Source: Seison nebaliae | Taxonomy: Eukaryota | Direction: 5' to 3' | DNA length: 44,488 bases | Assembly (NCBI GenBank): GCA_023231475.1 | Contig: JALJEE010002021.1 | Location: 62,001 to 106,488, forward strand | Shown here: one piece after another, positions 1 to 39,659 of the stretch | Numbering within the stretch: position 1 is the stretch's first letter | Layout: every line of letters starts with the position of its first letter | The notes under the pieces: generated by a model | The model's database searches: none | Told to the model about the DNA's origin: nothing | The model's input: the letters and a program-made list of their open reading frames with translations, nothing else | Made by a program: the position numbers and the translations under genes

Positions 1-2721
1 TTGGGAATTGAACCGAATGTTGTCGAAGAATTGTTGAATTGTGTACAGTCGATATTGGAGGCGAATGATTCGGAATAATTATCGGAAAATAATTGAGAAC
101 TCTTATTCGAACCGTTGTTTGACGGTGATAGAATGTTGTTAGTGGAATTTGATGAGAAAAATGAGTTTTTATTTCTATTATCGATGACATTCATGTTCAT
201 ATCAGTCGATAAGAAGTTCAAAGAATTATCACTTTTCTTCTTTTCATTATCATTATTCATCATCATATTATTATTATTGTTGTTGTTGTTGTTACTGTTC
301 CGGTTACCATTATTCATCATTATCTGATTATTATTATTATTGAAATTGTTGTTGGTATTATTATTATTATTATTATTGAAATTGTTGTTGTTATTATTGT
401 TGTTAAAGTCATTGTTAAAATTGTTGTTGTTGTTGTTATTGGTAAAATTATTATTATTGTTCATATTGTTATTATTAAAGTTGTTGTTGTTGTTATTTTG
501 ATTAGTGAAATTGTTGTTACTATTGAAATTGTTGTTGTTATTGTTATTATTGGAAAAATTAATATTATTATTATCATTATTCATCATCATATTATTATTT
601 TGATTTGAATTGAAATTAAATTGAAGATCTTTTGCAAAAGGATTTGTACAAGGAAAATTTTTGTTCGAAATCGGATCAATATCATTCATTCTATTGTCAT
701 AATTGGATTTCTCGGAAGTTAACGACTTCGAAAAGGAAACACTATTGACCGAAGTCAGATGGCTGGGTGAGGCGGACGACATGAAGTTCGAAGGAGATTC
801 AGAACTTTTCTTTGAAAACGGAGAATTGAACGGAGATAAATCTTGTTCGGAATTCATATTACTCTGATTTGATATCGTACTATTGTTAGCAGGTGATAAG
901 TTCATTGAATTAATTGAGAATTCGATTAATGAGGATTGATCCTGATAATTGTCGTTTGGTGATAAATCTTCTCGGCCGATACCTTTCACATTGCCCAATG
1001 ATTTATATTTCGGTTGGAATTCATTATTTCCATTTGTCTTTTGGTTCGAATTAGAGAATGGAGCAAATAAAAAAAATTCTTTTCTAACACATTCCTCATC
1101 GATGTCGTCAAATGATGAATCCGTTTTCCGTTTTCCTAAATCATATTTTTGAAAATTAGAATCAGTTTGATGTTCAACATGTTTCTGTTGCCCAATCTCA
1201 TCTTTCAATCGATTTTCGCTATTATTATCATTATTCATTTTTTGTTTAATTCCATTAGTGTTAGTAGAAACAGGTTCGTTAATATTAGTGAGCGATATTT
1301 TTGTTATTGATGGAGTATTACAAAATGTCGAACTTCCGTAGACTGTCGAAGGAGATAATTTCTTCTGTTCATTTTCTTCTTCATTCGATTTTGTAAATTT
1401 AATCAAACGATCAGGAATGGTCGTAGGCGAAGTGCTACCACCAATATATTCTAAAAGTGAATTGAGAGATAATGAAAATTTAAATAATAAAAATTTTAAA
1501 ATTAAATGTAATTTCTAATGAATGTTAATAAGCAAATCATAATGGACGAATTAGTAAAATGAGAGTGGATGAAGAAGAAAATAATCTCTTTGAACATATC
1601 TTACCATTAGGAAACTTTAGTTTGAAAAAAAAAGTTAAATCTCAATAAAAGTCTTCAACATTCTTTTCTTCCGTTAACCGACAGTTAATTGAGTGAAATA
1701 GCAACCTGGATTAATATGAATCATATTAATTTGTGAATCGTCATCAGATGAGGAATTGCTATTTCTGCTACTTCGTTTACTACCACGACTTCGTTTAAAA
1801 CTGGAATTTGGTGAAATATTGGGTGTGGTTCGTTTATTACCACTCAACTGATTTGAATCAATTCGTGTCATTAACGGTGAGAGACAACGGTTATTTTTCA
1901 CTTTCAACGAGCATTGTCCATAACGATGAGGAGTATTCAATGAATTACCGAAAGCTCCTTCTTCACTCGTATTTTGGACATTGCTCCGTCTGACAGCTTT
2001 ATCGCTTAAACTTCTTTGTAGCAAAGTGGGTGAGTCGTTAGTTTGTTCATTTCTCATCCTTGGAATGTTTTCATCACATTTTGATATGGTGACGGATGTC
2101 GAAGCGAGATTAGTATCTTTGTTTCAAGTGAAATATATTAACCAAAAGGTGAAAAGGAAATAGAAGAAGAAAAGTTAAAACCATAAACTGCCCAATTTAT
2201 TTCAGTTTTGGGAATATTTTCCGCTTGACACATCGAAACACATAGAAAGAGAATGAAGAAAGAAGAACTAACAAAGTTTTGCCCAAATTTTCCGTTCGGT
2301 CGCTAAGAAGGAGAGATTTGAATGCAACAAATGAAATTTAAAGAAACCATAAAGATTATTTCGACTTGTATGAGTTGATTTAATGAAATGCGAGGAAGTG
2401 TTAGTTTCCGGTTCATTCTCTTCTGTTGGACCACTGGGCTTTCTAACGATTTCACACGAACGACTTACTTTATCCGTTTCCAATTGATTGACGTTCAAAC
2501 TGTTATTGTTCTTTTCATTTTGATTGAGGGAATTAGTGAATTTTCCCAAATTTTTCTTTAATCGATTCTTTTTCAAAATTAATTTATTAAGATCTATTAT
2601 AAAGAAGGAAATAAACATTTGTTTGCATGATTTCATTGAACGTCCGATCTTCCATCGTACTCTTCTCCTTGATCATTTTAATTTTTTCTTCAAATTGACG
2701 CGGCATTTCTGATTTGATCAT
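1..2721 (-). CDS. Unknown low-complexity Asn/Ser-rich protein, multi-exon, 3' end outside the window. Exons approx. 2721-2617, 2567-2348, 2302-2273, 2223-2182, 2116-1679, 1450-<1
   Basis: ORFs 2587-2778, 2268-2636 and 1674-2057, plus a frame that stays open from 1450 to position 1 (poly-Asn tracts), join in phase through GT-AG introns of 49, 45, 49, 65 and 228 nt. No domain recognised. The start codon is uncertain, and an acceptor near 2780 suggests an upstream exon. Confidence 0.65.
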
Positions 2722-2981
2722 TATAGAAATGCCCAAAAGTCCAATATTCTTTTTCCTTGTAAATCTACCACTATTCAACTGATAGTTATTGAGAAAGAAA
2801 TCGAATGAATCTAATTGGAAAATGAAGATTTTAGTGCATGAAATGTTTATTTGTTTTCGGACAGAATTTTGTCGTCTCCAGATATCGATATGTGGAGAAT
2901 TGGTGATGAGAATTGTCAGTGACTACATTCTCTAGTATGTTCTCATATGAGTAAATAATAAATGTTAAAAGGAATAATGTG

Positions 2982-8573: not shown

Positions 8574-8715
8574 TGGAAAACAAATCTTAAAAATTGTAGC
8601 CCTTAAAAAATAGACCTTAAACATGTATAACTTCTTACTATAATATTAAATTAATGTCGAAAATTATACACAGTTTAGATAAAATTTAAAGTTATTTTCA
8701 ATAAAATATTTCAAG

Positions 8716-13324: not shown

Positions 13325-14303
13325 ATGAAAAACAATCTGGAGACAATGTTATTAATTTTGAAAAGAAGAAAAATAATTGTAATTGAACTTTAGGAATGAG
13401 AATAACAACAACACGGATATTGGAGTGATTCATCCCATAATCAACTTTCCTCTCCGTGATAAAGTAGTTGCGAAATCGTTTGATGAGTTAACGAGTAATT
13501 TGGATAAATTATTCGTGCGGAAAATGTTGAATTCGGAGGAGTTAGATCAAGTGGCATCTTTGATGTCTCATTTGGAGGTTGATGAGTCGCAATGGTCACA
13601 ATTTGCGAAATTTGATCCATTAAAGTTTTTTTTTTCAAATTTAAAAAATTAAAATGCTAAGTCATTGTTAGATATACCAGAAATATTATTAGCAGAGGGA
13701 ATGGATTCTATAATTTAATTTTGTTGTGTTGGAGTGAAGGTCAAGCGTCATCCATTCACGATCACACGAATGCCAGTTGTTTTATGAAAGTTCCATTAAT
13801 TTAAATTTCCTTCCATCTTTCTCATCGATCAAGCAGATCATGAAAGGAACTTTAATTGAGGATAGATATGAATGGCCCAAAATTAATTCAAATACTGGAA
13901 TGAAATTATTCCAAAGTACAAAACTAGAGACGGATCAAGTCGCTTACATAAACGGTTAAAAATTATCTCGTAAATTATCGTGGCTACAAGTGAAAACTCA
14001 TAATTCCCCACTCGTAGCTATTACCTAACCAATTCAATTTTCTTTCTTTTCAACATTTATTCATTATCCTTCTAGACGATTTGGGATTACATCGAGTTAA
14101 GAATAACAGTAACACAGATGTCGCCGTATCACTTCATCTTTATATGCCGCCGTTCACTTATTGTAATAAGTTTGATGAACGAAGTGGTTTACATCGACGA
14201 TGTGGAATGAATTGAATTTCAAATTAAATATATGATTAAACCATTGGATTTAGCGCTTACCTTCCAATTCTTTCCCAACAATAAACTTCTCACAAATCTA
14301 TGA
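13325..14303 (+). CDS. CDO1: Cysteine dioxygenase type 1. Exons 13325-13347, 13394-13624, 13672-13789, 13837-13954, then 14076-14215 (stop) or 14076-14201/14204 spliced to 14254-14303
   Basis: The spliced product contains [39 protein letters not shown] and [11 protein letters not shown]. The three iron-binding His, the crosslinking Cys and Tyr, and the substrate Arg are all present. The 3' end is ambiguous. Confidence 0.95.
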
Positions 14304-14766: not shown

Positions 14767-17760
14767 ATGGAAACATCTTCGAACATTTGCTTCTCCAAAA
14801 ATCTGATAAGTCCCACAATCCAAAAATTATTAGGTGATCGGAACACTGACAAACGAAAAAATGGAGCGGCCGAAATTGAAAAGTTATTTATCATCAAAAT
14901 AATTATATTCCATCATTAGTAGAATCGTAAAACAATTGATGAGAGATAACGATCATGGAAGTATTCGTGCAATTATTGCTCTGTTAAAAGGATCGTCATA
15001 TCTTCTCTCCACCACTAATTTACACGTGAGAAAAGGTGCCGTGTTGACATTCGCGTCAATCGCCATCACTTTGGGAGAGGAGAATGCAGATCAATTTATC
15101 GATGATCTATTACCATCAGTAATCAAAGCGTGTTTTGATGATGATAAAGAAATGAGATTCGTCTCTTTGGAAGCACTCTACAACATTCTCCGAACTTTCC
15201 GACAATCATCTTTACCTTATTTTCCTGATTTATTTGAATTATTAATTCATGTTCGTTTTCTTTAACTTTTCCAATTTAAAATTTTTTTTAAATCATTCAA
15301 AAGTTGTCACCTGATATGGATCAAAAAATCAAGAGTGGATCAGAATTTGTTGATAAATTATTGAAAGATATCGTTCTCGTATCTCAATCGTTCGATATAA
15401 AATTATTCGTAACTCTAATTCGAGAGAGATTATGTGTCACTCATTCCTTCACACGAATGTTCCTTCTTTCTTGGGTTTCTTCTTTTTCTAATAATTCCCT
15501 AAAACATTTCTCTTACATTTCTTGTTAGATTTATAATGTTGGTAATTTGACGGAATCACCTTTATTGGAATATCTGCATGAATTACTCGATGGATTATTT
15601 GAATTTTTATCTGGAACAAATTATGAAGTGCAAAGAATGTTGAAAATATTTTAAAATTTTTAAAAATTTTTAAAACTCAAACTTTTTAGGACTGACGTAG
15701 TTTTGAAGATATTTTATGATAATATCAATCAGGATTCTCCGTTAAAAACGAACGAAATCATCGGAATTACTCTACTTCATTTCCGTCAATCTCAGAAATC
15801 ATCTCAAGATAAATTGACTCATCGAACTTCGTTGAGATGGTTGTTAAAATTGATGTCGTTATTCCAGAACAACATTCTCTCATTCATTCCCAATATCACT
15901 TCAATTATCATTCATGACTTATCGATAAATAGCGACCAAAGTGAAATGTGGAAAGAAGCGAAAGAGATTAATGATAGTTGTGTCATAATCATTCGGAATA
16001 ATTGTCGGCAATCTCCGTTAGAATAATTTTTAAAATTTTCAAATAATTCTCCAATTTCTCAATTTATAGACATTCTAATGAAATCGTTTTGGATTTCTTA
16101 CAAACCATTACAGATCTGATAGATAATTCGAAGGAATTCTCCATGAAAATTAGGAATGATATGAGAAAATATTGTCTGTTATGGTTACTCTGTTTAGTGA
16201 AATCATTGAAACGGGAAGTATCGATGAATATTCATCGAATTCCATTTATAACGTCCGTTCTCCTTCTCATAATCGAAGAAGAAATGGACTTGGCGAATTC
16301 TGTTAATTTTAATTTCGATTAATTAATTAATTAATTTTTTTATTTTTTTTCAAATTATTTCGTATCATTTTGAAGGTTATTGGAAATGATATTATCGAAT
16401 TATTATCCAAATTATGTAGTGGAGAAAAAGAGAATTTGATGAATAATGACGTACCGTTATTGAGACGAGTTCCGACCTTAAACGAAATGGCGACGGATAG
16501 TGTAACGAAAAATATTTCATTTTATTCATATCAAACGGATTTGAGAGAGTATTTCAATCGACGTCTTAGTGACTCCAACGAACATTGTCATCGTTTAATG
16601 TCCATCATCACATCGATATATTGTGCCGAATGTGAAATTGAGGAATATAATTTGACCATCGCAATTCTCAATAAGGATGACGACGATTATAATAATAATT
16701 TATTAATACATGCCATTGCACATGATATTCTGGTACTCTTTTATTGGAATCAGAATAAATTCAACAATTTCTCATATCTCATTCGACAGATATGTCATCG
16801 GAGTAAGAACGCCCAACTCATATTTTTGGCATTCTCAATCGAACTTTATTTCTTTACGAAAAAATCGATTCTTGATGGATTCGTTGCCATGACGACCATT
16901 CCGACGAAACTGAATAAAAATCCAAAAAGAATTAATCGATCATGTTCAATATCGATAACGGAATATCGAGAAATGATCATTTATGCTCTAACGAAAGAAT
17001 TGTTGACTTCGAAAGAATTCTGTATAATCCGTCAACAATTTCGTGATATTTATTTATTTCTCATTCAACCAATTAATAAAAATTTTCAAAATCAAGAAAT
17101 CATCCGAAATATGTTCGAATCAATCATTTGCATCCAATGTATCTTCTCTTATGACATTATATCGTTTATTTCAATTTGTCTGTTATGTCAAAATTATCTA
17201 TTGTCCTATCGCATCATATGTTCGATGAGTGAATATGAATATTTGACATTCGCTTATCGATTCAAAGAACGTCTCTCAGAATTAGTTCGAATAATCGAAT
17301 CACCTTCATTCTCCTTCATGAGATTACAATTAGTTTCTTGCACTTCCAAACATTACATCGATCACGAACATTTGATCAAATATGCCGAACCATCGTCAAT
17401 TCCATCACTTACTCTATATAACAACACAAAGAACAACAACAGTTCTAATGGAATCAAAACGAGAATTGGAAATATCAGATCAGATAAATGTGCATTAACT
17501 AGATCTTTATACGGCTTATTGATGTTATTACCTCAAACGTCTTCTTTCGAAATTCTCAAAGATCGATTAACGTGTATTCCATCATCTATTAATGAAAATT
17601 CAATTTCTGATTCATCTTCCATCAATAACGAAAAGTTTCTTATCTTTCTCATATACTCTTTCCCAACTCTTTTTCTCCTAGATTAGAATTAAAGTCGGAT
17701 AATCTTCTTTACGAATTTGTGAAGGAAATTCAATTGAAATTATTCCAGGAAAATAATTGA
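14767..17760 (+). CDS. VAC14: VAC14, HEAT-repeat scaffold of the PIKfyve/Fab1-Fig4 complex, about 873 aa. Exons 14767-14882, 14923-15250, 15304-15474, 15529-15638, 15690-16016, 16070-16301, 16376-17634, 17682-17760
   Basis: Motifs DKRKNGAAEIEK, EALYNI, KSGSEFVDKLLKDIV, LIRERL, EYLHELLDGLF, LVRIIESPSFSFMRLQL and SLYGLLMLLPQTSSFEILKDRLTCIP. Seven GT-AG introns keep the frame (2622 nt in total). Confidence 0.95.
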
Positions 17761-20575: not shown

Positions 20576-23500
20576 CTAACGACGTGTAGTTCTATGTTTA
20601 TGAGATGGATAGAGACAATTCGTTTTCGGATCAGCGTATGGAATCGATGGTGGTAAAGATTCCCATGATTCAAATTCAAATCTCTCCAATTGGAGACGTT
20701 TTGTCGCTTTCTCAATCACAACATCTGGTGACATCGATTCAGTTACTTTTGAATTAGAAATTGAAGACAATGCATTAGAATGTTTGGGAGCGGTTCGTTT
20801 TGGAGGTTCGGGTGGTGGACGACTGGGTCTTGACGGAATAGTTGGTGGTGGACGATGTTGAGTAATAGATGATCGATTATTATCTGAAGAATAATTTTGG
20901 AGAGGAAAATTAAAAGATAAAATTAACTTGAAAATTGTCTCGAATTGTTGTTAGTGTACGACATGTTTGGTGGTGGTGGTTGTGGTGCAGGTTTTCCATT
21001 ATGTCTCATATCCGTCATTTGCAATGATGATGATGATGATGATATTGGTGGTGGTGGTGGTGGTTGACTTTTCATTACCGGTTTCTGCTGTTGTTGCTGT
21101 TGTTGTTGTTGTTGTTGGCCATATCTAATTTGTGGTTGTAGTGGCGGATTGGAATGTTGTGGTACTGGATTTGAACGTTGTTGTTGTTGTTGGTGTTGTT
21201 GGAAAGTGGTTTGTTGAGTATTGTTTAATTGAGCTGTTGATCGGAAATTTTTTGGTGGCGATTGAGCACGATTTGATTTTTCTTTAAAAAATACACAAAA
21301 AAAATAAAAAATTCAAAATTGAAATGGAAAAAAACCATTAAGATGTAATTGTGGCACAGTCACTGGAATGTTTCTGGTTGATGGAACATCCGTCGGATGT
21401 TGAGGCATTCTATTAGTGTCATTTCCATAACGTCCTTCATTTCTTATTGTTGGTGGTTTCATCGGCAATTCCATTTGTTGTGGTGGTGGTGGTGGTGGTT
21501 GTGATTGAGTTGGTGGTGCTGGTGGTGGTTGTTGTTGTTGTTGAATTGGCGGTTGTGGTGGCTGTGATGGTGGTTGTTGTGGGATGGTATTATTATTATT
21601 ATTATTTCGATTAATATCATTATGTTGATTGTTGTTATTTATTCGATCTGGAACGAGAAAAAGAGAAAAATTTGAAATTTGAAAAAAAATAATTTTTTCT
21701 TTTTACAGAAATTTCCATAAGATGGAAAGGAAGTAAACTGAAGTGTCTATATCTACTAATTGGATAAAAGAAAATCTATTCACCTTTTTCATTTAATGAC
21801 AAGTTCAATTCCTGGAATACTTCACTTAACAAATCTGATGAGATATTATATTCTGGTTTATTTTCAGATAATGGCGAATGGAATTTAGAGATATCATCAG
21901 GAATGATTTCTGAGAAATCGTCATTATCATCGATAGATTTAGTCGTTTGATAAGTTTGAGAATGATCGGACGAACGATAAATATCATTATCGGCTTCATT
22001 CGTCGAATAATCGTAAGTCGATGAGACATTAGTGGAAAGATAGACAATGGAAGATTTATCGATCGATTTCTTCCTCCGAGTTCCAGTGGACGAAAATCGA
22101 CGTCTATGTCTATTCAATGATTGATTATCGTTGAAGATTTGATTCATATGTTCGATAGAAGTTCGATTGAGAAGATTGGAAGTTTTATGGCGGATGGTGG
22201 AAATGGTTTTCACAATCGAATCGAATGAGACATTTGGAATTGAAAATTTTTCATTTGTTAAATTCTTCGATATTTTCGGCACTTCATTCCTCATTTCCTC
22301 ATCGTTATAATTACCATGAGTTCGACAATGGAAATTACGATGAATTTTATCTTCATCAAAATCCGATGACATTGACGAGAGAGAAGAGAGATCAGCGTCT
22401 TGATATTTTTTCATGAGTGATGACGGAGTCGATTCCATCACATTTTGAATTGGTTGAAGATATGATGATCCTGGTGATGCCATCGGCAATTTTGATTGTC
22501 TTTTTGATTGTTGATGATAATGATAATCGTAGAGAACGTATGCTGATGATGGAACATTCTCATCATAATTCTCATCATCATTTCCATATCTCTTATAGAT
22601 GTTATTATTAGAGGAATTCAATGAATGTTGAACTTCCGTCACTTTCATCGATTCATTATCGATGAATGATTTCCTTCGATTTTTCTTCTTTTTCAATTTC
22701 TTTAATGGTTCATATGTTCGATACTCATCATCATCATCATCATCATTATCATTAATTCTTTCTTCGTCTGTTCTTTGTATACGTCGATGATTAGTGCACG
22801 AATGATCTGGCAGACATTTATATAACGAATCTGGACTGAATAAATTCTTTTCCATTTCCATCTCTTCTTTCTCTTCACCATCATTATTGTTATTATTCGA
22901 TTGAAGTAAAGGAGATATAGATGGAGGTGTTGGTGGAAGTGGTGGTGGTTGTGGTGTCGGTGTTCGATGTTTCTTTTTCTGTAATTGGAGAGCTTGTGAA
23001 AGAATGGAATCGTTTGTCAAATCGATGGTGAACATTCGTCGTTTCGATTTATTCCGTCGATTATTTGTCGTTATAGATTTCTGTCGTTTAACATCCTTCG
23101 TCAAACAGATCGTCGATTTAGTCAACGTATCATTGAGAGTGAGTGATGGAGACGATTGCTCCAATTGAGATAACTGTAAAGATGATTTCAATTTTGATCG
23201 TTTCCGTCCGACGGTTCCTGTCAAATTCGCAAAAAATGACGTCGAACGTGATGATGATGATGATTGATCATTTGATGATATCGTTCCTTTTGTTGATGAA
23301 GATATTGTTGTGCTAATGGGAGATGAGATGGTTGTGGTGATGGTAGTGAATTGTTGAGATGATCGATTTTTCGGTAAACGAATACCGGCGGAAACATGAT
23401 CATAAATTTTATGGAATGTATCAAATCGTTGTTTCTTCTTCTTAATTGGAGTTATTTGTCTAGATTGTTGATGAATTGGTGGTAATTCGAAAGGAGAATT

Positions 23501-26500
23501 ATCAACCACTTTATCAGAATGATCGGAATTGTTTGTGGAATTTTCCATAATTAAATCATATAATTCCTCTTCATTATTTATCAATTTATTTTGTTTATTC
23601 GATTGATTGACAGATAATGATTGTGATAATCCAACGGCATCAATCGATGACGAATAATAAACGGAGGAAGGTGAATCATTTGATTTATTCTCCTCATTAT
23701 TCCTTCTTCCATTAATCGTCGCTAATTGATGATAATGTAAAGATGACGGTTTATTTTGTTGTTTCTGATGGGAATATTGACTAATATTGACATGTCGATT
23801 AGAGAAGGTGTAATCATTGGATGATGATCCATTTCCAGAATCATAAAATATTTCATCAGTCAAATTTAACATCGTGGCAATACTGTCACCATAATCATCA
23901 TTTTTCGGGAATTTGGGTGATAGACCATCGCCCATCTCAACGAAATCACCATCAGTTAATGATAATTGAACAACATCGAAAATGTGTTCGGATGTTGTTG
24001 ATTCACTTTTGGAATTCATCATATTTTCATCATTGATCTCCTCGTATTTATCACCTGATTGGGAAGAGGATGATGAGGAATTTTTCATTAATTTTGATGG
24101 AATCGCTGCCGTTGTTATTGGACCTGTCATCATATCTTTAATGGTCGTTGACGATAAATTCGATTGATACGACGTGACAGTTGTGAATGTTGTGATGAGA
24201 TTAGTTGTGGAGATACAGCGGAAGATATCAGCTAAAAGACTCGATTTTCCCATATTATTTTCATATCTCTCTGACAGTTTCTGTGAATGATTCGTTTTCA
24301 AAATACTCTTCATATCAGGAGTATGAATACTCTTCATCTGATGATGATGATGATGATTTGTATGGAGATGATTTATATGTTCATCTTCATCATAAATTCT
24401 CCGATTCAATTCATCAATTTCGTTCGTTGCTAATTTATATGATGATAAATTATCATTCTCTTCATTCATTGACATTCGACGATCATTTCCACATTTCAAT
24501 GAACTGTGAAGAATTATATGGTCGTCATTTTTATCTCCGATTGAGAGTTGTAAAACGTTCGTTTTAATTGTATGTTGATGACAGAAACTTTTTGATGGAT
24601 TTGATCCGTTCACTTCGTTTGGAATAGGAAGAAGTTCCTTCATCTCTCCCATTTTTGATGATGACAAAGTCGAATTACTATTTCCTTTCTCTCCACTTCT
24701 CGATCGTTGTCTAATCTCACCACAATTAGTTGATGATTTATTTAGAGATATCCGTTTCGACTGAACATTCCTGCTGTCCCCTTCCTCCTTCACACAATTG
24801 GAAGAGAAATGAAGTTTTCCTTTAATCAATTCTCTCGTCTGTGCAAAGTCTGATAATCTCTCGGAAATATTCAATTCCTTCTCCATTCCACCTATCTCCT
24901 TCATTTCATCACTCTCTTTCTTCAGATTGATGTCTGACAATTTATTCTGTTCATTCTGCTTGTTGAGTGAAACGCCGAGAAAGAAGTCGCGACGTGAAGC
25001 AACCGTATTTTGGATGCAATTTCTTAATTGTTCCGAAACACGAATATTTGCCATCACATTAATTAATTAAACTGCGTCAATGTTCACCCGTGAAAAAAAA
25101 ATATTCCATCTAATTAACATAACATATTTTTTTATTATTATTTAATCACATTTATCTTGAGTGTGCACTCGCAGTGCACAGAAATTATATCCTTGACATG
25201 AGATAGAAGTCGATCGATATGAAGAAAAATTAATTTGATGAAATAATTTCGTCATAGAATGAATTGTCGATCGATTAAAATACTCTTTGAAATATTATTT
25301 CATAGAATTAATCGAACGAACGAATGAATAGAGCAATGTAATATGAGAAATGCACAAACATATGTCTCTCATCAATGACCACGACAATAACAACAACAAA
25401 ACCAATATTCTAATCAATATACAGCTGACCATTCACTTAACTGACTTACGAGGATTGTTCTCTCTCTTCTCTCTCTCTATCTCTCTTTTCTCACTGACAG
25501 TCACACAAAAAGGAAATTTTGTGGAACGAATTTTCGCGGAAAAATCCAAAAGTTTTTTATGGAGAGGAAGAGCATGTCAGATGAATTATTGGTAATTGTT
25601 AACATCTCATCGAAATCATCTTAATAATATTATTAGAGAGTAAAAGTTTGATAAATAAATATAATAAAAATAATTCAATACGATAACATTCTCCTTCAAC
25701 CATAACATCTAAATTATCTTTTACCGATAAATAATTAGAGAAAATTAGATAATTATAGACTGTTTAATAAATATTATTTAATAAACTGTTTATTAAGTGT
25801 AAATAATTAAGGGAATTATATCTGTGTGATTACATCTTCTTCTTCTAACATCATTTCATATAGTGGTCTAACATAATTATGTGGTAGGTAAATTGTAAAT
25901 TTTGAATGGTAGTCATCCATAAATAAATAACATTTGAAATATTGGATAAATTGTTTCGTTATAATTGAAGAGTAAAAAGTTTAATATGACTTCTCGTCTT
26001 ACGTGAACGATAAAGAGCTTAAGTTAAACTGCTTGGGAAAAAGAGGTGAAGCAAATGAGAGTTCTTCCAATATCTTCCATCAGTCAGCGAGTAGCAGAGG
26101 AGAGGAAATAAGTGTGTGATTGAGGAGATAAATAGAATTAATCAAACTTCGTTCCATTATCAACAATTGCATATTCGGTTAATGGACTGCTTAAGATAGA
26201 ATGAGGAAATGATTAAATATAAACATCACGTAAATTCAGTCCACACAAATATGAAGTCCTACACTCATATTTATAGAGAATTGTCTATTACTATCATGAC
26301 GTATCCGTTACACTCATACACATTTCAATTATACTTCACTAAATTAATATATTCATAAACTGAAGAATAAATTGTGTAGTTGGGTATTGTAATACTGCAT
26401 CTGGATACATATGATATCGAACTTACATTATGTGGTCTATGTATATTTGTAATATTAACCGCACTGACAGTATCGAATCGATATTATTCCTTAGAAAAAT

Positions 26501-29500
26501 ATTATTTTTCGCTATGTATCTCTCTATTCGATTGGTCTCTGTTTACCTACAATCCATCCCTTCAACTTTTCCACATAACGACTTTATTTTGTGTGTAGAC
26601 TGAACCGATCACCACCGTAATCAACTAGTGGAGTCTAGTCTCCAAAATACTTTAACCATTCCAAGTCTCCCAACTCGAAGACGAAGAAAGAATTTATTAA
26701 TAAAACGAAAACATATTCACAGAGTTCAAACTTTATCTACAATTTCTCATGAGCAGAATGTGAAAAAAGAGAAAATCATTTCTCCTCAATCTCAATGTTT
26801 GTCTTCCCTAATTTCTTTCTTTCTTTTTTTGATATAATTTTTTGTTGTGGTCTACTAAAGCGGTTTTTAGTTAATAAAGAAATTCTGATCTTTCTGATCA
26901 CATCTTATTTTCTGTCTCTATCTGGATCATTATATTTTCCGTCCTGAAGGAACGAACCGTTTTCGGCAGTTTACAGTTTTACTCTAAAAAAAAAAGGAAT
27001 TCTCTTTTTTCACGTCCATATTTAATGGAGAATTGTTTCTCCTTCTAATTGAAATGGAAGAAATTCGGTGGAATAATATATATCTTGAAATAATTGCTTA
27101 TGGAAAAGGAAAAAGGTTCATCGGGAGAATGTTCAAAATGATTACATTCGATTCGAACGATATGTGATCTTAATACGATAAATTTCTTTATTTATTTATT
27201 CTCTATTAATTATATTGATAAGTAAATAGTCGTCCTAATCCAAGATTGGAATGATCAGGAATATCTGAATGAAAAGAAAAAACCTTAAAGGAAAATCTGA
27301 AACTAATTGGAATTCATTCTCTCTCAAATTTCCATCATCATCATCATCATCGTGATGGTGAGTGAGAGAAATGGATGATATATTCATACACAAATAAATG
27401 GATAAGATGAAGATAATATCTTTCTATAAATATAAACAAATAAATTCATCGTTTTGACATGACTTTCATTCTGCTTCCCCTCTCTCATATCTTACTCGCA
27501 ATTTAGTTTGATTCCCATTCAACTATGTCTCATTTTGTTACTTTTATTTCAATTGTTTCCCTTCAATCTCATCACTCGCGTTTGAAAGTTGTATCGAAAT
27601 AAATCTCAATCTTTCTTTCTTGCTTATCCAAAACTTCTTTTTCTCAAGATTCTCTAACAGAGTAAGTCAAGACGATATTGCTTTTCCTAATCTTTATTCT
27701 TCGTTTCGTCGTTCGGTTTATGTGAAACAATAAGAACATTAACAACAACAACAATAACAACAATGATATCTGTATCGATTGGGAATTATGAAAATTATGT
27801 CAAGATTTAATGGAAAATGTTGTTCAATTTAATATTGGGCAGAATTTGACAATATTAAAAAATTTAATATCTTAACACATTCCTCCATAATCTCACAAAG
27901 AATGAAAATTTGGAATTGAGAAGAAAATGCTTATTCTTCTCAATTTCTTTATATGTTTCTGAAGGAGGAAATCTCGATTTCTTGTAATGTTACACAATAA
28001 GACTTCTCACATGATTTTCTTATAAAGATAAATAAGATATATTCATTTAACCAAATAAACTGGAATATGAGAGAAATTATGAAATTATTTCCGTAATTAC
28101 ATGATTGATTTTTCGAGTATCGGTATGGAATGGCACAAAACAGCCATTTTTCAACTGAACGCAAAAATTGTCAAATAAACAAATGGGAATAAATTAATAT
28201 ACGATAAAAAAATTTTCATGAAAATTTTTAACGAGTTTCATTTTCGAAATTTATTTATTTTATTATCAAAAATTCAATAATCTGATAACGATCTGATGAT
28301 AATGGAATTAATTATTAATTAATTTTTCCGAATAATTATTTTTCCGAAAACATGTTCCAATCATCTTTTCGATGAGAATAGAATGAAATAGAAGAATGGT
28401 AAAGTAAATAAATAGAGTGAAGGAATTTGAGGTGGAAGAAAGTGGGGAAGGAATTGCAGAAGAAAATCATTTAATTCATTTCGAATGTTCGTCTTTTTTC
28501 TTCAGTCATTCAATGAATTAGTCAAAAATTGGGTTTCTTCCAATTTTATTGAGTATGTTTACTCTATCATTGTGACTACATTCATCTTATTTAGTAATTT
28601 TGTCACCATTTCTAATGGAATCAACGGAAAAGTGAACGACCTTCCATTCTCTTTTCCATCATTTCATGCAGAATTTATCTGAATGAGTCTAATTATAACC
28701 ATCATGATTAGTATTAGTTACTGGAGGAATAGTTGTTTCATTTTTTTCTCATATTCAAAACAGATGACGACGACATGAGATGATGGGAAACCAGCAGATA
28801 TGAATTTTATGATAATTTGAGAATTTATCATTCTCATTTTCGATTAATAACATATGAATAAATTAGAAAGGATGTTACCACTCGTCGTATAGAACACATA
28901 CACATACACACACACGTACTGCTCATTACTTCGGTGCAGAAAAAAGGGGAAATTGATGGAAAAGAAACATTTGTGACCTTCCCCCCAATAATAATAATCA
29001 TCATTGAGAGAATGGAAGGGGGAAACTTGTTAGAATAAATAGAATTATTTTCACTCTATGAACGACGAACCACACACAGGTACTCGTATGTGTTTAGTCA
29101 CACGATTTAGTAATAAGATGTGAATTGTTCAATTAAAAATTCTCAGCTGACTTCCATTCACCTTTTTCTCCTTTCAAGAATTATTCTGTTGAAGGAAAAT
29201 CCGATTTATTTTCCTACTTTATTATCAATACTCCATCAAACAATTCCAATTTATTATCATCGCCAGAGAAATTATAAATGGAATTATTTTCTTTGCAGAA
29301 TTAACATCATAAAAAATTCATAGAAGAGAGACGATGATACTGAAGAAAGTTTGGAGGAGGAGGGGAGAATCATTACAATTATACATTTGTCTTCTATTGT
29401 TTCGTCATATCGATTCAATTCTTTTCCAATTCTATGTAACAAAAAATTTCGACGGAAATCATCGAGGGAGTAAGAGAGATTTCCTCCTTCCCACGATTAA

Positions 29501-30248
29501 TCTCGATATGACCTCACACCGAAGTGTTCGTTCGATAAATAGGAAGAAATTCACCGAGAGAAACTTATTCAACTGATAAAGGAAAAGTTAAATAATCAAT
29601 TGATGGAATTTTCGTAAATTCTGCAAAACGAACAAAAGAAGAAATTTGTTGATGGAATTATTCGAAATTATTTCATGAAATGATTCATCTTCTTTATTTG
29701 TGATGAAATAATAATGATAACTATGTCCATCTCTTTTTATGGGATGAAGATCAATCGACTTATTATTGGAACGAATCTCAAAAGAACAATAAAGGAATCT
29801 TATGAGAAAAACAGAAATCTTAAACATAATCTTATGAAAGTGGAAGAAGAAGAAATTCCATTATTATTCCATTCACTTAATCGATTCTCATTAAGAAAGT
29901 TTAGAGAAAAGGTAGACATGGATGGATAGGATGGATGAGTGACACTTAAATGCCATTTTCCTTAATTCCCAATCACTCTTCTTCTTCTTCCATTTGTTGG
30001 AAATGTGAGTGATTGGTAGTCTATCGGAATGAGATGATTTTACTATGAACGTTTAATTTCACTTTCCATTTAGTCTCTATTTCATTTCAACTTTCATCCG
30101 ATCGTCATATCATCATTTCTTCTCCGACTCGAACTTTAATCCATTTTTTATTTTAACGTTCGAACTTGCTACTTTCCTTTCTTTCTCTTCTAATCTGACG
30201 ATGACAGAACAAATCTATCTTCATTTCATGAAATTTGATTCACCACTA

Positions 30249-30281
<33 letters not shown>

Positions 30282-30801
30282 ACACATTAATCCTGAGAGA
30301 GTGTTGTCTAAATTAAAATCATTTCTTAACCTGTCTTGACGATGGGAGCCGGTGCCCCACCAAAAATACCCGCTAACATCGCTTGTTTACTTTTGAATGA
30401 GTTCGCCGGCTTATTAGATGTCACTCCATTATTACGATTAATTTGTTGTTGTTGTTGTTGATGTGCTGGTTGTGGTTGTGATTGTTGAGTAGAATGATTT
30501 GATGGAATTGAACTTCCACCAGCTGTTATCGTTCCCGCATTCTCTAAAGAGAAATTTAATTTTTTTTTTATGAAAATCTTTTTTAACTTACAACCGATCG
30601 ATCGTTCACTTGTGTCTTCTTCAATCGACTCTTCAAATTCAAACTGTTTATGTCGTTGAATAATGCCGAACGACCACCACCACCTCCTCCACCCATATTA
30701 CTGAGGGATGGCGGTGGGGGAGGACCGGGAGGTGGAGGTGGTCCTCCCAAATCAGGAGGGGGTGGTGGCGGTGGCGGCGGTACTCCTCCACTGTTATACA
30801 T
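20576..30801 (-). CDS. WIPF: WASP-interacting protein (WIP/verprolin family), about 466 aa. Exons 30801-30588, 30543-30331, 21647-21336, 21281-20928, 20883-20576
   Basis: N-terminal poly-Pro and WH2 (GRSALFNDINS...LKKTQVNDRS), a second verprolin motif (LAGIFGG), a Pro/Gln-rich middle, and a C-terminal WASP-binding segment (ERFEFESWESLPPSIPY...LYPS). All four introns are phase 1 and the total of 1401 nt is in frame. Intron 2 is about 8.7 kb. Confidence 0.85.
21776..25054 (-). CDS. About 1090-codon low-complexity (Ser/Asn/Thr/His-rich) ORF inside WIP intron 2; probable alternative first coding exon of the WIP gene, otherwise a nested gene
   Basis: A 3.3-kb uninterrupted ORF in very AT-rich DNA, with an in-frame TAA just upstream of ATG 25054. 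A phase-1 donor AAG|GTGAAT at 21783 is compatible with the WIP exon-3 acceptor at 21648. Confidence 0.7.
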   Translation of the reverse strand: MANIRVSEQLRNCIQNTVASRRDFFLGVSLNKQNEQNKLSDINLKKESDEMKEIGGMEKELNISERLSDFAQTRELIKGKLHFSSNCVKEEGDSRNVQSKRISLNKSSTNCGEIRQRSRSGEKGNSNSTLSSSKMGEMKELLPIPNEVNGSNPSKSFCHQHTIKTNVLQLSIGDKNDDHIILHSSLKCGNDRRMSMNEENDNLSSYKLATNEIDELNRRIYDEDEHINHLHTNHHHHHQMKSIHTPDMKSILKTNHSQKLSERYENNMGKSSLLADIFRCISTTNLITTFTTVTSYQSNLSSTTIKDMMTGPITTAAIPSKLMKNSSSSSSQSGDKYEEINDENMMNSKSESTTSEHIFDVVQLSLTDGDFVEMGDGLSPKFPKNDDYGDSIATMLNLTDEIFYDSGNGSSSNDYTFSNRHVNISQYSHQKQQNKPSSLHYHQLATINGRRNNEENKSNDSPSSVYYSSSIDAVGLSQSLSVNQSNKQNKLINNEEELYDLIMENSTNNSDHSDKVVDNSPFELPPIHQQSRQITPIKKKKQRFDTFHKIYDHVSAGIRLPKNRSSQQFTTITTTISSPISTTISSSTKGTISSNDQSSSSSRSTSFFANLTGTVGRKRSKLKSSLQLSQLEQSSPSLTLNDTLTKSTICLTKDVKRQKSITTNNRRNKSKRRMFTIDLTNDSILSQALQLQKKKHRTPTPQPPPLPPTPPSISPLLQSNNNNNDGEEKEEMEMEKNLFSPDSLYKCLPDHSCTNHRRIQRTDEERINDNDDDDDDEYRTYEPLKKLKKKKNRRKSFIDNESMKVTEVQHSLNSSNNNIYKRYGNDDENYDENVPSSAYVLYDYHYHQQSKRQSKLPMASPGSSYLQPIQNVMESTPSSLMKKYQDADLSSLSSMSSDFDEDKIHRNFHCRTHGNYNDEEMRNEVPKISKNLTNEKFSIPNVSFDSIVKTISTIRHKTSNLLNRTSIEHMNQIFNDNQSLNRHRRRFSSTGTRRKKSIDKSSIVYLSTNVSSTYDYSTNEADNDIYRSSDHSQTYQTTKSIDDNDDFSEIIPDDISKFHSPLSENKPEYNISSDLLSEVFQELNLSLNEKGE
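30249..30281. repeat. Compound (CA)n(TA)n microsatellite near the 5' end of WIP intron 2
   Basis: Direct reading. Confidence 0.85.
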
Positions 30802-33368: not shown

Positions 33369-36300
33369 ATGAGACGGAATGAATATCCGTTACAACCTTT
33401 GGATTCATCAGAAATTCAACTCGTTGTTAATGAAACGGAAATGAAAAATGGAAATAAATTAAATCGACTAATCGCATTAGCCATCGTCATATGCATCGCT
33501 TTCATCGGTTGTATTCTCGTGACGCATTTCGTTACAAAGAATCAATACAAAAATAAGAATGATGCTCTAAATAAATTACCGAAAGAAGACGTAAGAGAAT
33601 ATGTTTGTACGTCACCGAATCGATTGAGAGAATATCAGTTACTTTATTGTGACAAATCTTTCACCGCTTCCACATCCAAACCAGATGTAATTCTTTCTAC
33701 AACACCACATGAAGAAACGACACCATCACTAGTTACTGTGACTGGTGAACCGGAACAAAATGAAACGATAAAAACGATTTTGGCTCGACTACCTCGAGAT
33801 GTTATGCCGATCGAATATGATATATTCGTATCGGTCGATTTTCGAAGAGTTGACACAAACAAACAATATCCATTTTCAGGAAAAGTTTGTATTTTTTCAT
33901 TTGATATTTCTCATTTAATTATTAATTAATTTTCACTCCGATTAATATGAAGTTCTGTAAAATTGTTTTATTTTCTTTTCATTTATTCTCCTTCTTTTTT
34001 AGACGACAGTTGTTGTCGAATGTAAAAAAGTTACAGATGAGATTTTGTTGAATGTTTTAGATTTGACGATAGAGAACGTGGTGATTCGTTTAGTTGGGTC
34101 GACTGATGATTTATTGAAGGAATATGAAGTTCATAATGACGAGCAATTTATTTCGGTCAAAACAAAAAATAAATTGACAATTGATAAAAAATATGAAATT
34201 ATCTTCACTTTTACCAGTTTGTTGAATCGACACAATGCTGGACTTTATTATTCGAGTTATAAGGAGAATGCTATGGTACATCACATCGCTGCAACTCAAA
34301 TGGAGCCGGTTGATGCTCGGAGAATGTTTCCATGTTTCGATGAACCAGATATGAAAGCCAATTTTACGATAAGTGTCGAACACGAGACCACATATGGTTG
34401 TATTTCAAATATGAAGAAGAAAAGTGAGGACAATTCAGAGAATGGTATGAAAATAACGAAATTTAAAAAATCGCCAAAAATGTCGACATATTTGGTGGCT
34501 TTAGTAATTTCAAAATTCGACGTATTGGAAGGAAAAACGAGAAGCGATGTTAATATTCGAGTTTGGTGTCAGAAATTGAAAATAAAATCAGCCGAATTTC
34601 CATTACAATTAGCGATTAAGTTGACGGATAAATTCGGGGAGTATTACAAGACTCCGTTTCCGTTGGAGAAACAGGATATGATTGCTTTGCCTGATTTTTC
34701 AGAAGGTGCCATGGAAAATTGGGGTTTGATCACTTATCGTGAGAGTAGATTGTTAGTGGATGAAGCAACTAGTTCCACACTCGACAAACAATATGTGGCA
34801 CAAGTTGTTTCACATGAATTGGCACATCAATGGTTTGGGAATTTGGTCACACCGAAGTGGTGGGATGACTTATGGTTAAATGAAGGTTTCGCTCGCTACA
34901 TCGAATATTGGGGTGTCAATGACCTTTATCCGGAATATGAGATGATGAATCAATTCATTATTAAACGTCATTTAGATGTGATGTTGATTGATGGTAAGAG
35001 AAATAGTCATCCGGTGACAGTTCCCGTAAAACAACCGATGGAAATTAATGAAATATTCGATTCTATTTCGTATAGTAAAGGCGCATCGATGATAAGAATG
35101 ATGGTGAATTTCTTATCGGAGGAAATGGTGAGAAACGGTCTCCAATATTATCTCTCCACTTACGCTTATGATAATACGGATCAATATCATTTGTGGAGTT
35201 CGATGGATCATATGGAACCGCAAGGTCTTCCCGACACCGTTCGAGAAATTATGAAGAGATGGACGAATCAAATGGGTTTCCCTATCATTCATTTCAATTC
35301 GGAAACGGACGAATTAACACAACATCGTTTTATTTATCCCACATCAAATCAAAATGAATCCTCATCAGAAATCAAATATCCGAGTGCATATAATTACGAA
35401 TGGATTATCCCAATTCACATAACGACTGATTTGGATAATAAAATCATTTGGCTGAAAGATAAGAAGATGACGATAGAAACAGAAGATCTTGACAAAAAGA
35501 ATTTTTATCTTTTTAATGCCGACGCTTTCGCTTTTATTCGAGTGAAATATGATGAGAAAAATTATCAACAAATCACTAAAAGACTTAAAGAAGATCATCA
35601 TCAATTTTCCGTTGGAACACGAGCACAATTATTATCGGATGCTTCCGAATTAGCTGCCGCTTATGAGATCGATATGAAAATATTCCTGGAAATGACTCTC
35701 TATCTCGCCAAACCGGAAACACATTCTGGTATTTGGGATTTGGTGGCAGGTAATTTGGTTGATATCAACGCCCGATTGCGGCCATTTAAGTCGTATGAAT
35801 TATTTCAAAATTATTTGAAATATATCACCAAACCAATTTTGTTGAATGTGGGATGGGAACCGAAACCGACCGACGAACCACTAGACACATATGTTCGTAA
35901 TACGATATTGATGTTAAATTGCAAAATCCATCAATCGGAATGTCGGGAATATATTACGAAATTATTCAATAAATGGAAATCCGATCCTACTAACAATCCG
36001 ATTCCACCAGATCAGCGAGATTTAGTTTATTGTTTCGCTTTACGATTGGGAAATAGTTCGGATTGGCATTTCTTATTAAATAATTTCCTCAACTCTGATA
36101 ATCTCCCAATCAGCGAATTGAATAAACAATTATTAGCATTGCCATGTACGAGAGAGCCGTGGTTATTGGAAAAGTTGATATTATTTTAAAAAATATTTTG
36201 TTGATTCACTTATTTCAAGATTATTGAAAGAAGCAATTGTTACGAAACAATTCGTTCGATTACAAGATTCATTGAGTGTTATCATCAAAGTAGCGAAATC

Positions 36301-39300
36301 ACCATACGGCTCCCAATTGGCATGGAAATATGTAAAGAAATATTATAAACAATTATACGAATCGTTCGAATTCTATTCTAATTTGTTCTCTAATTTTCGG
36401 TCCTGAATCGTCCAGTTTAGGCCAAACGGGCGGTTTCGGACGAATGATTCGGGCCTTCGCCGAAGTATTTTCTGATGAAGGAATGAAACAAGAAGTTCGT
36501 TTTCTTTTTGACAATATTTTTGATGGGATGATTGATAGTTTGTTGAATTAGGAAAGATGGCTAAACTGAATAATATGGAAGGAACGGCTGCCATTCAATT
36601 TCAGGCCGGAATCGATAATATTGATTTGAATATTGGATGGTTGAAGAAAATTCGACCACAAATTGAAGATTGGCTACAAAAGAATTTCGATGGCAATTCA
36701 ACATTGCAACCGATAAAAAATGATATTCGCTTATCCAAAGATATTATACCGATTAGTTATACGATTGAATTGGAACCATTCCTTAATGAGGATGATGAGA
36801 ATGCTTATAAGTTTAACGGAAAGAATACGATAACCTTCGAATGTGAGAAACCCACAAAAACCATCGAATTACATTGGAAGAATTTGATGTTCCGAGAGAA
36901 TTTGACCACGGAAGAACCGGCGACTAATGTGCCAGTTCCGCGAGAAGTCTTCGCTTTGAAAGAAGTGGCGAATGGAGAAGAAGTACAAATAGTTTCGTGG
37001 AAGAAAAATCCCAGAAATGACATTTTGACCTTGAGGTTGGATAACATTTTGAAAAAAAACGGAAAATATAATTTAATGGTGAAATATGACGGAATCATTA
37101 ACGATCTCTTAGCAGGTTGGTACAAAGCAAAATATACAAATTCGAAAGGAATCGAAACTTATTTGGCCACTTCTCATTGTCAACCGGCGAATGCACGTAA
37201 AATTTTTCCATGCTTCGACGAACCGGAATTAAAAGCGAAAATTATATTGACAGTCACTCACGATAAAGAACTGAAATGTTTATCGAATGGGAAACTGGAA
37301 ACGAGTAAAGAAGTTGGAGAGGATAAATTAGAAAGTTCATTTGAAACCACACCAAAAATGTCGACGTACTTGTTCGCCATTGTTGTTGGTGATGTTGAAT
37401 GTAAAAACGAGACGGTTAAATCCGCTAACGGAAAAGACGTTGAAATAAGTGCGTGTGCCGAACCCGAAAAGATTGAAGGTGTTTCTTACGCTTTGGAAAT
37501 AGCGACAAAAGTGTTACCATATTATGAGAAATTGTTCAACATTCCATATCCGTTGAGTAAGATGCATATGTTGGCCGTTTCGGCTTTTAATGCTGGTGCC
37601 ATGGAGAATTGGGGATTAATAATCTATCGTGAAACGGCAATGTTGTATGACCCAACTGTTAATTCGATTAGTAATAAATATCGTGTGGCGGAGGTGGTAG
37701 CTCACGAATGGGCACATCAATGGTTCGGTAATTTAGTTACACCGAAATGGTGGGATGAAATTTGGTTGAATGAAGGTTTCGCTTCATTTATGGAGTATTT
37801 AGGTGTGGACGAATCAGAAAAATTATGGAAAGCACAAAATCGTATGGTAACAACTGTCGTTCAAACGATAATGGAAGACGACGCGGTCGCCACTTCATTA
37901 CCAGTTTACCGTCCCATCCATAATGTGGACGAAGTGAATCAAGCGTTCGATTATATCGTTTATGATAAAGGTTGTTCAATTCTAAGAATGTTGAAAGGAT
38001 TCCTCACCAAAGACGTGTTCTATGAAGGAATCTCCGAATATTTGAAAGAGTTTTTGTATAGTGCGACGGTGGGTGAAGAATTATGGAGTTCTTTAACGAA
38101 AACGGCTCATGAAAAAAATTTCCTACCTGCAGATAAAAACGTTTCGTCCATTATGCATAATTGGATACAGAAAAGTGGATTTCCTGTAATCAATGTAAAA
38201 CAATTGGAGAATAATAAAGTCCAATTGAAACAACGTCGATATCTGTCAACGACTTTGGCAAAAAACGATGAGACTCTTTGGCAAGTTCCAATTACATATC
38301 GAATAATCAAGAATGCCAATCGAGAAGAGTCTGAAAATATCGTTTGGTTAGATGATAAAGAAGCCGAATATGATTGGAAATTAGAGAAAGAATCTGTCGT
38401 TATTCTCAATCGTCATCATGACGGTTTTTACCGAGTGAATTATGATAAAGAAAATTGGATGAAAATCACTGAATATCTACAGACTAATCCGGAAGAATTT
38501 GAAGAGATTGAAAAATCATTATTATTTGATGATTCTCTTTCTTTATTCATATCAGGTCATATCAATCCAAAAATTCCATTCGATTTACTTCAATATTTGA
38601 AAAATGGTAAATTAATTTTTTTTGTCTCTTTTTAACATTTTTCCTTTTGCAGGAACGGAAACTTCCAGTAATGTGGCGAGGACTCTTGTTTATAAATTCA
38701 GTACAATAAACGACAAATTGTATTTCCAACCGTCTTATCAAAGTTTCAAGAAGTTGATCCGATCATATTTCAATTCATATTATTCCGACAATTTATTCGA
38801 TTTCCAACCAACAAATGACATCAATCAAGTTTCAATTTCCTTTCTTAATTTAAAAAAAAAATCTTTTTTCAAGGTCGATTTCCAACGATATATCGTATCA
38901 TTATCTTGCGGATATAATGTGGAAGGATGTCGATCAGAAGCACGACGCCGATATTTAGAATGGAGAACGAATGGAACGGAAATGTTAGTAAAATTATTTA
39001 TAATTTCAATATAATTTCCTCGAAGTAATTCGAATGTTCGAACCATCGTTTTATGTTACGGTGCTATCAAAGAAGGAACAAGTGAAGATTGGGAGTATAT
39101 TAAAGGCCGGTATATGGAAGAGAAAAATGCAGCAGAAAAATCAAAATTTGGCGCTGCCCTCGGATGTACCAATTCCATGAATATCGTGAGAAGGTTTTAG
39201 CAAGTCTCTAGAAATTTAATCGTAATTTGTTGAAGATTATTAACCATGTCGACGAATGGAGAAATAAAAAATTCAGAAATTTCAACAGTTATCGGTTACG

Positions 39301-39659
39301 CGTCCAACTCTCCAATGAGTAATGGCGTCGTTCTACAATACGTGTTGAAGAACTGGAAATTGTATTTCGATAAGTTCCGTGACGACTCATTTACGTTGGA
39401 TAGAATTATACAAAAATCATGTCTCTACCTCTCCTCACAATGTGATATTACGATTGTCCACTTTTCTACTTGCTATCTCTAATATTTATTCTTTCAGTTA
39501 CAAGATTTCATGGACTCAAATCAAGTAGGACCAGCGAAACAGGCCTTCATCAATGGAATCGAGAAAATTCGATACAGTATTAATTGGCTGGAAGAAGTGT
39601 ATCCGAAATTGGAGGATTATTTAAGAAAATTTGAAGATTCATCAATAATCACAACATAA
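33369..39659 (+). CDS. Type II membrane M1-family zinc aminopeptidase (aminopeptidase N/A-like) with two tandem full catalytic units, about 1937 aa. Exons 33369-33884, 34003-36173, 36220-36363, 36416-36494, 36539-38606, 38653-38828, 38874-38983, 39026-39193, 39236-39455, 39498-39659
   Basis: Signal-anchor LIALAIVICIAFIGCILVTHF. Unit 1: RLPRDVMPIEY, FPCFDEP, GAMENWGL, HELAHQWFGN...WLNEGFA, SYSKG. Unit 2: RLSKDIIPISY, FPCFDEP, GAMENWGL, HEWAHQWFGN...WLNEGFA, VYDKG. Each unit has its own ERAP1-like C-terminal domain. Nine introns keep the frame (5814 nt). Confidence 0.92.

Follow-up and report, generated by a model that had tools for sequence, protein, structure and literature searches.

The 44,488-nucleotide (nt) stretch of the Seison nebaliae genome analysed here (contig JALJEE010002021.1, positions 62,001 to 106,488; hereafter the window, whose own numbering and strands, + or -, are used throughout) carries several protein-coding genes whose predicted introns predominantly begin with GTT. 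Animal donors usually read GTA or GTG, and a purine at the third intron position (+3) is among their most constant letters. A Pfam scan of the window recovered CDO, VAC14, an NPC1 luminal domain, a WH2 motif and two M1 aminopeptidase units, and a weak TORC_N match accompanies a CRTC-like gene. The final CDO exon shows 100% identity to the deposited Seison nebaliae protein SNEBB_007299, and a VAC14 exon matches the deposited SNEBB_007300 at the same identity, which places the window in this seisonid rotifer or in an identical strain. For intron positions, the deposited Seison CDO and VAC14 proteins (P0123 and P0125) were mapped back exactly onto the window; the deposited gene models are predictions made independently of an earlier reading of the letters alone (the sequence-only reading), and all introns described here are likewise predictions, from DNA and homology. 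The window is matched by long contigs of two DNA runs over 13200-21014, 21618-30238 and 30290-33199, and further contigs of DNA runs equal it across 35649-39432.

To rank possible splice sites, we scored every frame-open cut within about 45 nt for 21 candidate introns in CDO, VAC14 and the aminopeptidase gene, comparing the spliced peptides with Seison-free profiles (57 VAC14 homologues, 60 aminopeptidase N homologues and one krill CDO). The strict set (tier A, n = 17; tiers were assigned after scoring) comprises introns whose best GT/GC-AG cut was the sole one, stood at least 6 bits above every non-GTT donor or, at 39456, held an 8-bit lead. GTT opens 15 of these 17 (Wilson 95% interval 0.66-0.97; p=0.0012 against 0.5), the exceptions being one GTA (38607) and one GTC (39456). 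The other four candidates are one rejected VAC14 intron, two VAC14 introns of weak homology whose best GT donor is GTT, and CDO intron 1, which has a single solution. Five more introns with a single frame-open solution all begin GTT, which brings the total to 23/25 (p=1e-5 against 0.5), and adding five or six ambiguous introns gives 27/30, 28/30 or 28/31; the 28/30 set swaps a doubtful donor at 21783 for that of a long WIP-like intron at 30330, and the 28/31 set includes both. The sequence-only reading had counted GTT in 30 of 33 introns, of which 31 could be placed, 28 of them with GTT; the two left over are probably CRTC-like. A purine occupies +3 in 1 of 30 introns, and no GURAGU-like consensus is seen, while the GT...AG ends themselves are retained: among all cuts scored, whatever their end letters, the GT-AG cut comes out highest or only a few bits lower in most anchored introns. 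As far as predicted introns can tell, the predominance of GTT donors in the window is confirmed.

This predominance exceeds what the local composition provides. GTT accounts for 1580 of the 3996 GTs in the window (40%), 164 of 406 in exons and 14 of 38 in intron interiors, where T makes up 49% of bases (likewise 0.49 at positions +4 to +20). Among decoys, defined as unused GTs no more than 40 nt from a donor that leave at least 38 nt, GTT was found in 7/26 for the strict set (Fisher p=1.2e-4), in 12/40, and in 16/54 for all introns (p=6e-8).

The gene that contributes most to the strict set, at 33369-39659 (+), is an open frame of 1931 amino acids (aa) with two complete tandem aminopeptidase N units (profile scores 917 and 812 bits) and long catalytic exons without introns. 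Its nine introns are all tier A. Intron 1 (33885..34002, 118 nt, GTTTGT..TAG) scores 35.4 bits against 28.9 for a GTA donor; intron 2 (36174..36219, 46 nt, GTTGAT..AAG) 60.8 against 38.7; and intron 8 (39194..39235, 42 nt, GTTTTA..AAG) 44.3 against 8.8. Both open donors of intron 3 (36364..36415, 52 nt, GTTCGA..CAG) are GTT, and intron 4 (36499..36551, 53 nt, GTTTTC..TAG) is top of 10 with an alternative at 36495 that is also GTT. Introns 6 (38829..38873, 45 nt, GTTTCA..AAG; 23.1 against 12.9 bits unspliced) and 7 (38984..39025, 42 nt, GTTAGT..AAG) are sole open cuts, as is intron 5 (38607..38652, 46 nt, GTAAAT..CAG), the GTA exception; intron 9 (39456..39497, 42 nt, GTCCAC..CAG), the GTC exception, is top of 11. 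The earlier count of seven GTT donors in nine thus stands, with intron 4 better placed at 36499 than at the 36495 first proposed.

A divergent copy of this region offers a further view of the same donors. A search at 80% likeness in three runs of one sample gave contigs of lower depth, about 80-85% identical, that span parts of the aminopeptidase gene; contigs 80-88% identical to the window also cover 21770-21907, 22119-22267 and many pieces within 33388-39800. They may derive from a second S. nebaliae lineage, as reported in PMC8351084, or from a paralogue. Their evidence concerns four donors, among the matches listed. At the GTC exception the divergent copy has T at 39458 in place of C, which turns the donor into GTT; substitutions and gaps in this intron are concentrated in 39458-39491, with none at the GT or AG among the matches listed, and of the surrounding exon changes, again among the matches listed, six of seven fall at third positions. 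Other divergent pieces end at the +3 T of intron 6 (38831), at the GT of intron 5 (38608) and at +5 of intron 3 (36368), and pieces resume at 36218 (intron 2), 36545 (intron 4), 38645 and 39027 (intron 7), on or within a few bases of the predicted acceptors. Because the aligned piece at the GTA exception stops on the GT at 38608 and breaks at +3, the divergent base there is likely not A.

These controls bear on the possibility that the pattern is an artefact of T-rich introns combined with hand selection that favoured GTT. Introns are indeed 49% T, some have non-GTT alternatives, and both the introns and the deposited models are predictions. Against this, ranking by homology only returns 15/17, decoys read GTT in 16/54, positions +4 to +8 lie at background and the divergent copy reads GTT at the GTC exception; moreover, at the CDO, VAC14 and NPC1-like donors the window is identical to the long contigs from the two DNA runs, though these may be its own source. 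We consider an artefact very improbable.

All four CDO introns (+) coincide with the deposited model. Intron 1 (13348..13393, 46 nt, GTTATT..TAG; tier B) is the sole open GT/GC-AG cut and lies outside the conserved part. The remaining three are tier A: intron 2 (13625..13671, 47 nt, GTTTTT..TAG) leads both the 13 GT/GC-AG cuts and the full list of 1292 cuts, intron 3 (13790..13836, 47 nt, GTTCCA..CAG) top of 11 and intron 4 (13955..14075, 121 nt, GTTAAA..TAG) top of 10. In VAC14 (+), five of seven introns are tier A: intron 1 (14883..14922, 40 nt, GTTATT..TAG), with a single possible donor and top of 1341 cuts of any kind; intron 2 (15251..15303, 53 nt, GTTCGT..AAG; as deposited), top of 3 with a lead of 30 bits; intron 3 (15475..15528, 54 nt, GTTTCT..TAG), at 76.3 against 37.5 bits; intron 4 (15639..15689, 51 nt, GTTGAA..TAG), top of 1384 cuts of any kind; and intron 7 (17635..17681, 47 nt, GTTTCT..TAG), the sole open GT/GC-AG cut. 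Introns 5 (16017..16069, 53 nt, GTTAGA..TAG) and 6 (16302..16375, 74 nt, GTTAAT..AAG), both tier B and as deposited, have the top GT donor, with a GC donor 3 bits higher in the poorly conserved stretch of the former and 4.5 bits higher in the weak homology of the latter. The four CDO and seven VAC14 donors named in the sequence-only reading are all present and identical to those obtained by back-mapping the deposited proteins. One further deposited VAC14 intron, 15855-15932 (+, GTCGTT), was rejected and left out of the counts, as homology gives 30.3 bits unspliced against 7.6 spliced; the deposited model thereby drops 26 codons that homology indicates as coding.

The NPC1-like gene (18230-20070, -) encodes luminal domains only, with a Thr-rich repeat, a hydrophobic end and a weak NPC1_MLD match. 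Its intron 1 (19847..19887, 41 nt, GTTCCT..CAG; tier C) is one of 6 open solutions, and intron 2 (19649..19703, 55 nt, GTTGAC..CAG; tier B) the sole one. On the same strand, the WIP-like gene, whose last exon has zero matches in the PDB, has four putative introns. Intron 1 (30544..30587, 44 nt, GTTAAA..TAG; tier C) is one of 7 open solutions; intron 2 (21648..30330, 8683 nt, GTTAAG..CAG; tier C) yields an open 466-aa Pro/Gln-rich frame, with other phase-1 GTs upstream; introns 3 (21282..21335, 54 nt, GTTTTT..AAG) and 4 (20884..20927, 44 nt, GTTAAT..CAG), both tier B, are sole open solutions. Inside the predicted 8683-nt intron, on the same strand, lies an open reading frame (ORF) of 1096 aa (21776-25066, -) with no Pfam match, which could alternatively splice from 21783 into the WIP-like 3' exons. 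The resulting intron (21648..21783, GTGAAT; tier C) was the third exception in the sequence-only reading; all three (GTAAAT, GTCCAC and GTGAAT) are found where they had been placed, but the last lies in the final part of the nested ORF, whose own stop occupies 21776-21778, and may be no donor.

Some sites near the WIP-like start and in the CRTC-like gene admit other donors. A perfect GTAAGT at 30591 (-) overlaps WIP-like intron 1, and its use would require a GAG acceptor two bases beyond the first AG. Upstream of the start codon at 30801, GTAAGT at 30995 and GTAAAA at about 30851 (-) are followed by a T-rich tract and then AG; these are possible untranslated-region introns with a +3 purine, and were excluded from the counts. 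The GTAAGT at 30995 overlaps a GTT four bases on, the same arrangement as at 30591/30587. In the CRTC-like gene (-), the intron at 2568..2616 (GTTTAT..AAG, 49 or 61 nt; tier C) has three open solutions and the weak TORC_N match upstream, and those at 2224..2272 (49 nt, GTTAGT..AAG) and 2117..2181 (65 nt, GTTTTA..AAG), both tier B, are sole solutions given their anchors; the former could fuse with the next intron, its donor unchanged. The stretch 1705-1451 has several solutions: a single 228-nt intron (1451..1678, GTTAAC..TAG; tier C) or two introns with GTC or GTAAGA, the GTAAGA lying at 1604. An optional in-frame intron (2347-2303, GTT) was not counted.

Elsewhere in the window are two apparently intronless genes on the - strand, one for a B-box zinc-finger protein (6931-8037) and one for a 283-aa protein without a Pfam match (12128-12985; P0275). 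A GC-richer ORF cluster without a Pfam match (8683-9820, +) and RVT_1 reverse-transcriptase pieces near the window end (42289-44488, -) are likely retroelement remnants, and a tRNA gene (40343-40414, +; Rfam RF00005) has anticodon TTC by eye.

Past the third letter, the donors hold little that is fixed. The earlier statement that +4 is variable and that few introns have G at +5 is borne out: +4 is A in 12/30 and T in 10/30, showing no U preference at an intron T content of 49% and so lacking the hallmark of METTL16 loss, and +5 is G in 6/30, three times the intron G content of 0.063 (p=0.01). G is found at +6 in 1/30 and at the last exon position in 8/30, and AG precedes the donor in 2/30. Positions +4 to +8 lie at background composition, T being somewhat higher at +9 (19/25, uncorrected). 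Exon ends are A-rich, with A in 18/30 at each of -3 and -2 against 0.35 (p=0.004 each, uncorrected), and 24/30 introns are 40-55 nt long. Based on the count statistics, the decoy comparison and the divergent copy, the analysis supports a donor signal shrunk, in short introns, to little more than GUU, as the sequence-only reading had proposed. This pattern could in principle come from a recent transposon-derived family of GTT introns, or from a canonical signal displaced by one base (GTT-RAG), either of which we find scarcely credible. Similarity among 28 introns does not exceed that among shuffled sequences (top score 39 against 27-47), and most of them have no end duplications, on which grounds the intron family was rejected; the displaced register would need G at +6, found in that single intron of 30, and was rejected likewise.

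The acceptors depart from custom as well. Acceptors in animals are usually CAG or TAG, with AAG at a few percent in well-studied species. Here TAG ends 12, AAG 10, CAG 8 and GAG 0 of 30 introns, and AAG ends 5 of the 17 strict ones. This apparent parallel relaxation at acceptor position -3 alongside the donor change is a new observation of the present analysis; the sequence-only reading had included neither it nor the Entamoeba precedent discussed below. Intron 3' ends are T-rich, the last 25 nt contain no other AG in 25/30, and five branch-point motifs showed no positional peak, being scattered through the final 45 nt. Pairing to a canonical U1 averages 4.40 of 9 for true donors and 4.19 for decoys (p=0.21); because true donors pair no better, an unchanged U1 would not select them by pairing. 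True donors do score above decoys for the exon As that face U5 (p=0.007).

TIA-1/Nam8-type proteins bind U-rich intron starts, and U1C and LUC7 have roles at the donor. A protein might accordingly read the U, with a diverged U1C or LUC7, or a TIA-1/Nam8-type U-rich binder, setting U1 on GUU. Such a reader would be in keeping with the weak RNA pairing obtained with any U1, the modest rise in T at +9 and the highly diverged U1C of Entamoeba (bioRxiv 10.1101/2022.06.08.495308). Conversely, the preference is sharp at one position and continues into no U tract (T 0.49 from +4 to +20), and we judge a protein reader quite improbable.

No small nuclear RNA (snRNA) gene, whether U1, U5, U6 or another, was found within the window (Rfam at two thresholds; short U1 and U6 motifs). 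Among the splicing proteins, we take FAM192A to be the orthologue of Fyv6. The BUSCO sheet of the supplement to PMC12256650 covers 25 species, of which only Seison is scored as missing METTL16, SPF45 and FAM192A; U5-40K is scored missing there and in one bdelloid, and ZMAT5 there and in both acanthocephalans. PRP8, SNRNP27, SLU7, KIN17, ZMAT2 and cactin are complete in Seison; the survey of SNRNP27 and PRP8 called for earlier thus gave no loss, and U1C and LUC7 did not turn up among the rows searched in that supplement. The FAM192A row is unreliable, the gene being only fragmented in most other rotifers. The proposed loss of METTL16 gains weak support from its scored absence, but METTL16 loss is known to shift +4 rather than +3 (PMC10581693) and so cannot explain the T at +3; it would account for a free +4, retention of SNRNP27K tolerating A at +4 without METTL16 in the same study.

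Deviation of the third position at both intron ends (GTT in 28/30, AAG in 10/30) raises the possibility that an unchanged U1 reads little and that the +3 U is picked in the active site, through a G.U wobble with U6 or an altered U6, Prp8 or second-step pocket that also relaxes acceptor -3. The usual +3 purine contacts U6 G44 only weakly (PMC11732430), and in yeast A3C limits the second step, with Prp8 Q1594, Prp18 and Fyv6 controlling -3 (PMC12707134); the scored absence of FAM192A and SPF45 in Seison alone (PMC12256650) would agree, within the unreliability of the FAM192A row. Set against this, an unchanged U1 mismatches a +3 U and would favour purines at the first step, and a single wobble is little to yield about 90% U. 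We regard selection in the active site as unlikely, if less so than a protein reader.

We favour, at about an even chance, a compensated U1: a Seison U1 whose 5' end carries A opposite +3 (ACUAAC-like, replacing ACUUAC), together with relaxed U6 reading and definition across short introns. It is ranked first because choosing U rather than a purine at +3 calls for a partner biased towards U, and an unchanged U1 has no such bias. Under this model, U1 would mark GUU by a three-pair helix, aided by proteins and, given such short introns, by contact across the intron with its 3' end. Following hand-over, U at +3 would form a G.U wobble with the G in the ACAGA box of an unaltered U6, a step already suggested for Entamoeba. 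U6 is likely unmethylated, given that METTL16 is scored missing, with SNRNP27 kept, which would free +4, and the A residues at -3 and -2 may pair with U5 loop 1 and offset the weak U6 helix. The acceptor would mostly be the first AG beyond the T-rich tract, its -3 position being checked more loosely. The residual G at +5 is what would be expected if the C of U1 and U6 opposite +5 is still present. In print, Entamoeba, with a compensated U1 and a normal U6, is the only +3 U lineage that we found described (Roy and Bowser, bioRxiv 10.1101/2022.06.08.495308).

Several points weigh against the compensated U1 and against the reading of the donors on which it builds. The search windows were seeded from the sequence-only reading and the deposited models, with tiers fixed after scoring, and GTA donor candidates remain at 1604, 30591, 30995 and about 30851. 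A compensated U1 would give only about 5.3 of 9 pairs, a score that is circular for +3; as even this helix is very weak, donor choice may be made after the U1 step. Atypical donors often occur with an unchanged U1 (69 yeasts, Thecamonas and Micromonas), although these are mainly +4 cases (bioRxiv 10.1101/2022.06.08.495308). Unlike in METTL16-less yeasts, U is not preferred at +4 (10/30 at 49% T), and compensation between G at +5 and exon As falls short of significance (p=0.08). Of 954 BUSCO genes, 356 are missing in Seison, 76 of them there alone (PMC12256650), so that three or four losses of the Seison-only type among about 30 rows are no enrichment and serve as a lead. The U1 end itself is a prediction, and the mechanism is inferred. 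Somewhat more tentatively than for the compensated U1, we suggest that both ends of the intron signal have been rewritten: a one-letter change in U1 (or the U6 pocket) would have imposed GUU genome-wide, loss of METTL16 and of a second-step check would have freed +4 and admitted AAG, and intron length with exon-end As would place the cuts.

A switch to U at +3 across an intron-rich animal genome would be a natural test of how snRNAs and splice sites change together, over tens of thousands of sites; within the literature searched, comparable joint change has so far been in print for an intron-poor amoeba. For annotation, standard donor models are a poor match to the Seison genome, and one of the deposited VAC14 introns appears spurious. 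The divergent contigs could be used for a genome-wide look at selection on +3. A metagenome scan for CDO relatives, sought as sister taxa, returned three loci with intronless matches, and no rotifer name appeared among 10 VAC14 homologues looked up. In the full-text literature searched, subscription papers lying outside its coverage, we met with no account of GTT donors in Seison, other rotifers or another animal; in the available text of PMC8351084, 'splice' occurs once, with no donor analysis, and the text of its supplement holds no splicing terms.

Four known systems invite comparison. Rare human donors share the GUU start and are spliced by the major spliceosome: the named classes sum, by our addition, to 3604 of 215,155 (1.7%), all with GU at +5/+6, or to at most about 4% if unspecified classes are added (PMC5387049 Table 1). 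Seison differs in having GTT at 28/30, mostly without GU at +5/+6. The U5-reliant AG//GU donors (PMC11732430, PMC11347140) resemble those of Seison in a weak U6-facing intron start and in exon ends that could pair with U5 loop 1, yet AG precedes the Seison donor in 2/30 only, the exon signal being A at -3 and -2, and a fixed +3 U is no part of that class. The +4 U donors of Saccharomycotina, linked to loss of METTL16 and SNRNP27K (PMC10581693), present a shifted consensus, and METTL16 is scored missing in Seison by BUSCO; the Seison shift is instead at +3, without a +4 U preference, with G at +5 not kept and SNRNP27 complete. The closest likeness is to Entamoeba, where donors read GUUUGU(U), U1 carries ACAAAC and the U6 box is normal (Roy and Bowser, bioRxiv 10.1101/2022.06.08.495308). 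Judged by introns alone, the two share a +3 U in nearly all introns (here 15/17 strict, 28/30), GT-AG ends and AT-rich introns. Entamoeba is an intron-poor protist with a strict and long GUUUGN (97-98.5%), whereas Seison is an animal with 2-9 introns per gene in which GTTTG occurs in 1/30 and +4 to +6 are nearly free. The Seison donors are thus a shift of the Entamoeba kind, set apart by belonging to an intron-rich animal and by being minimal rather than strict.

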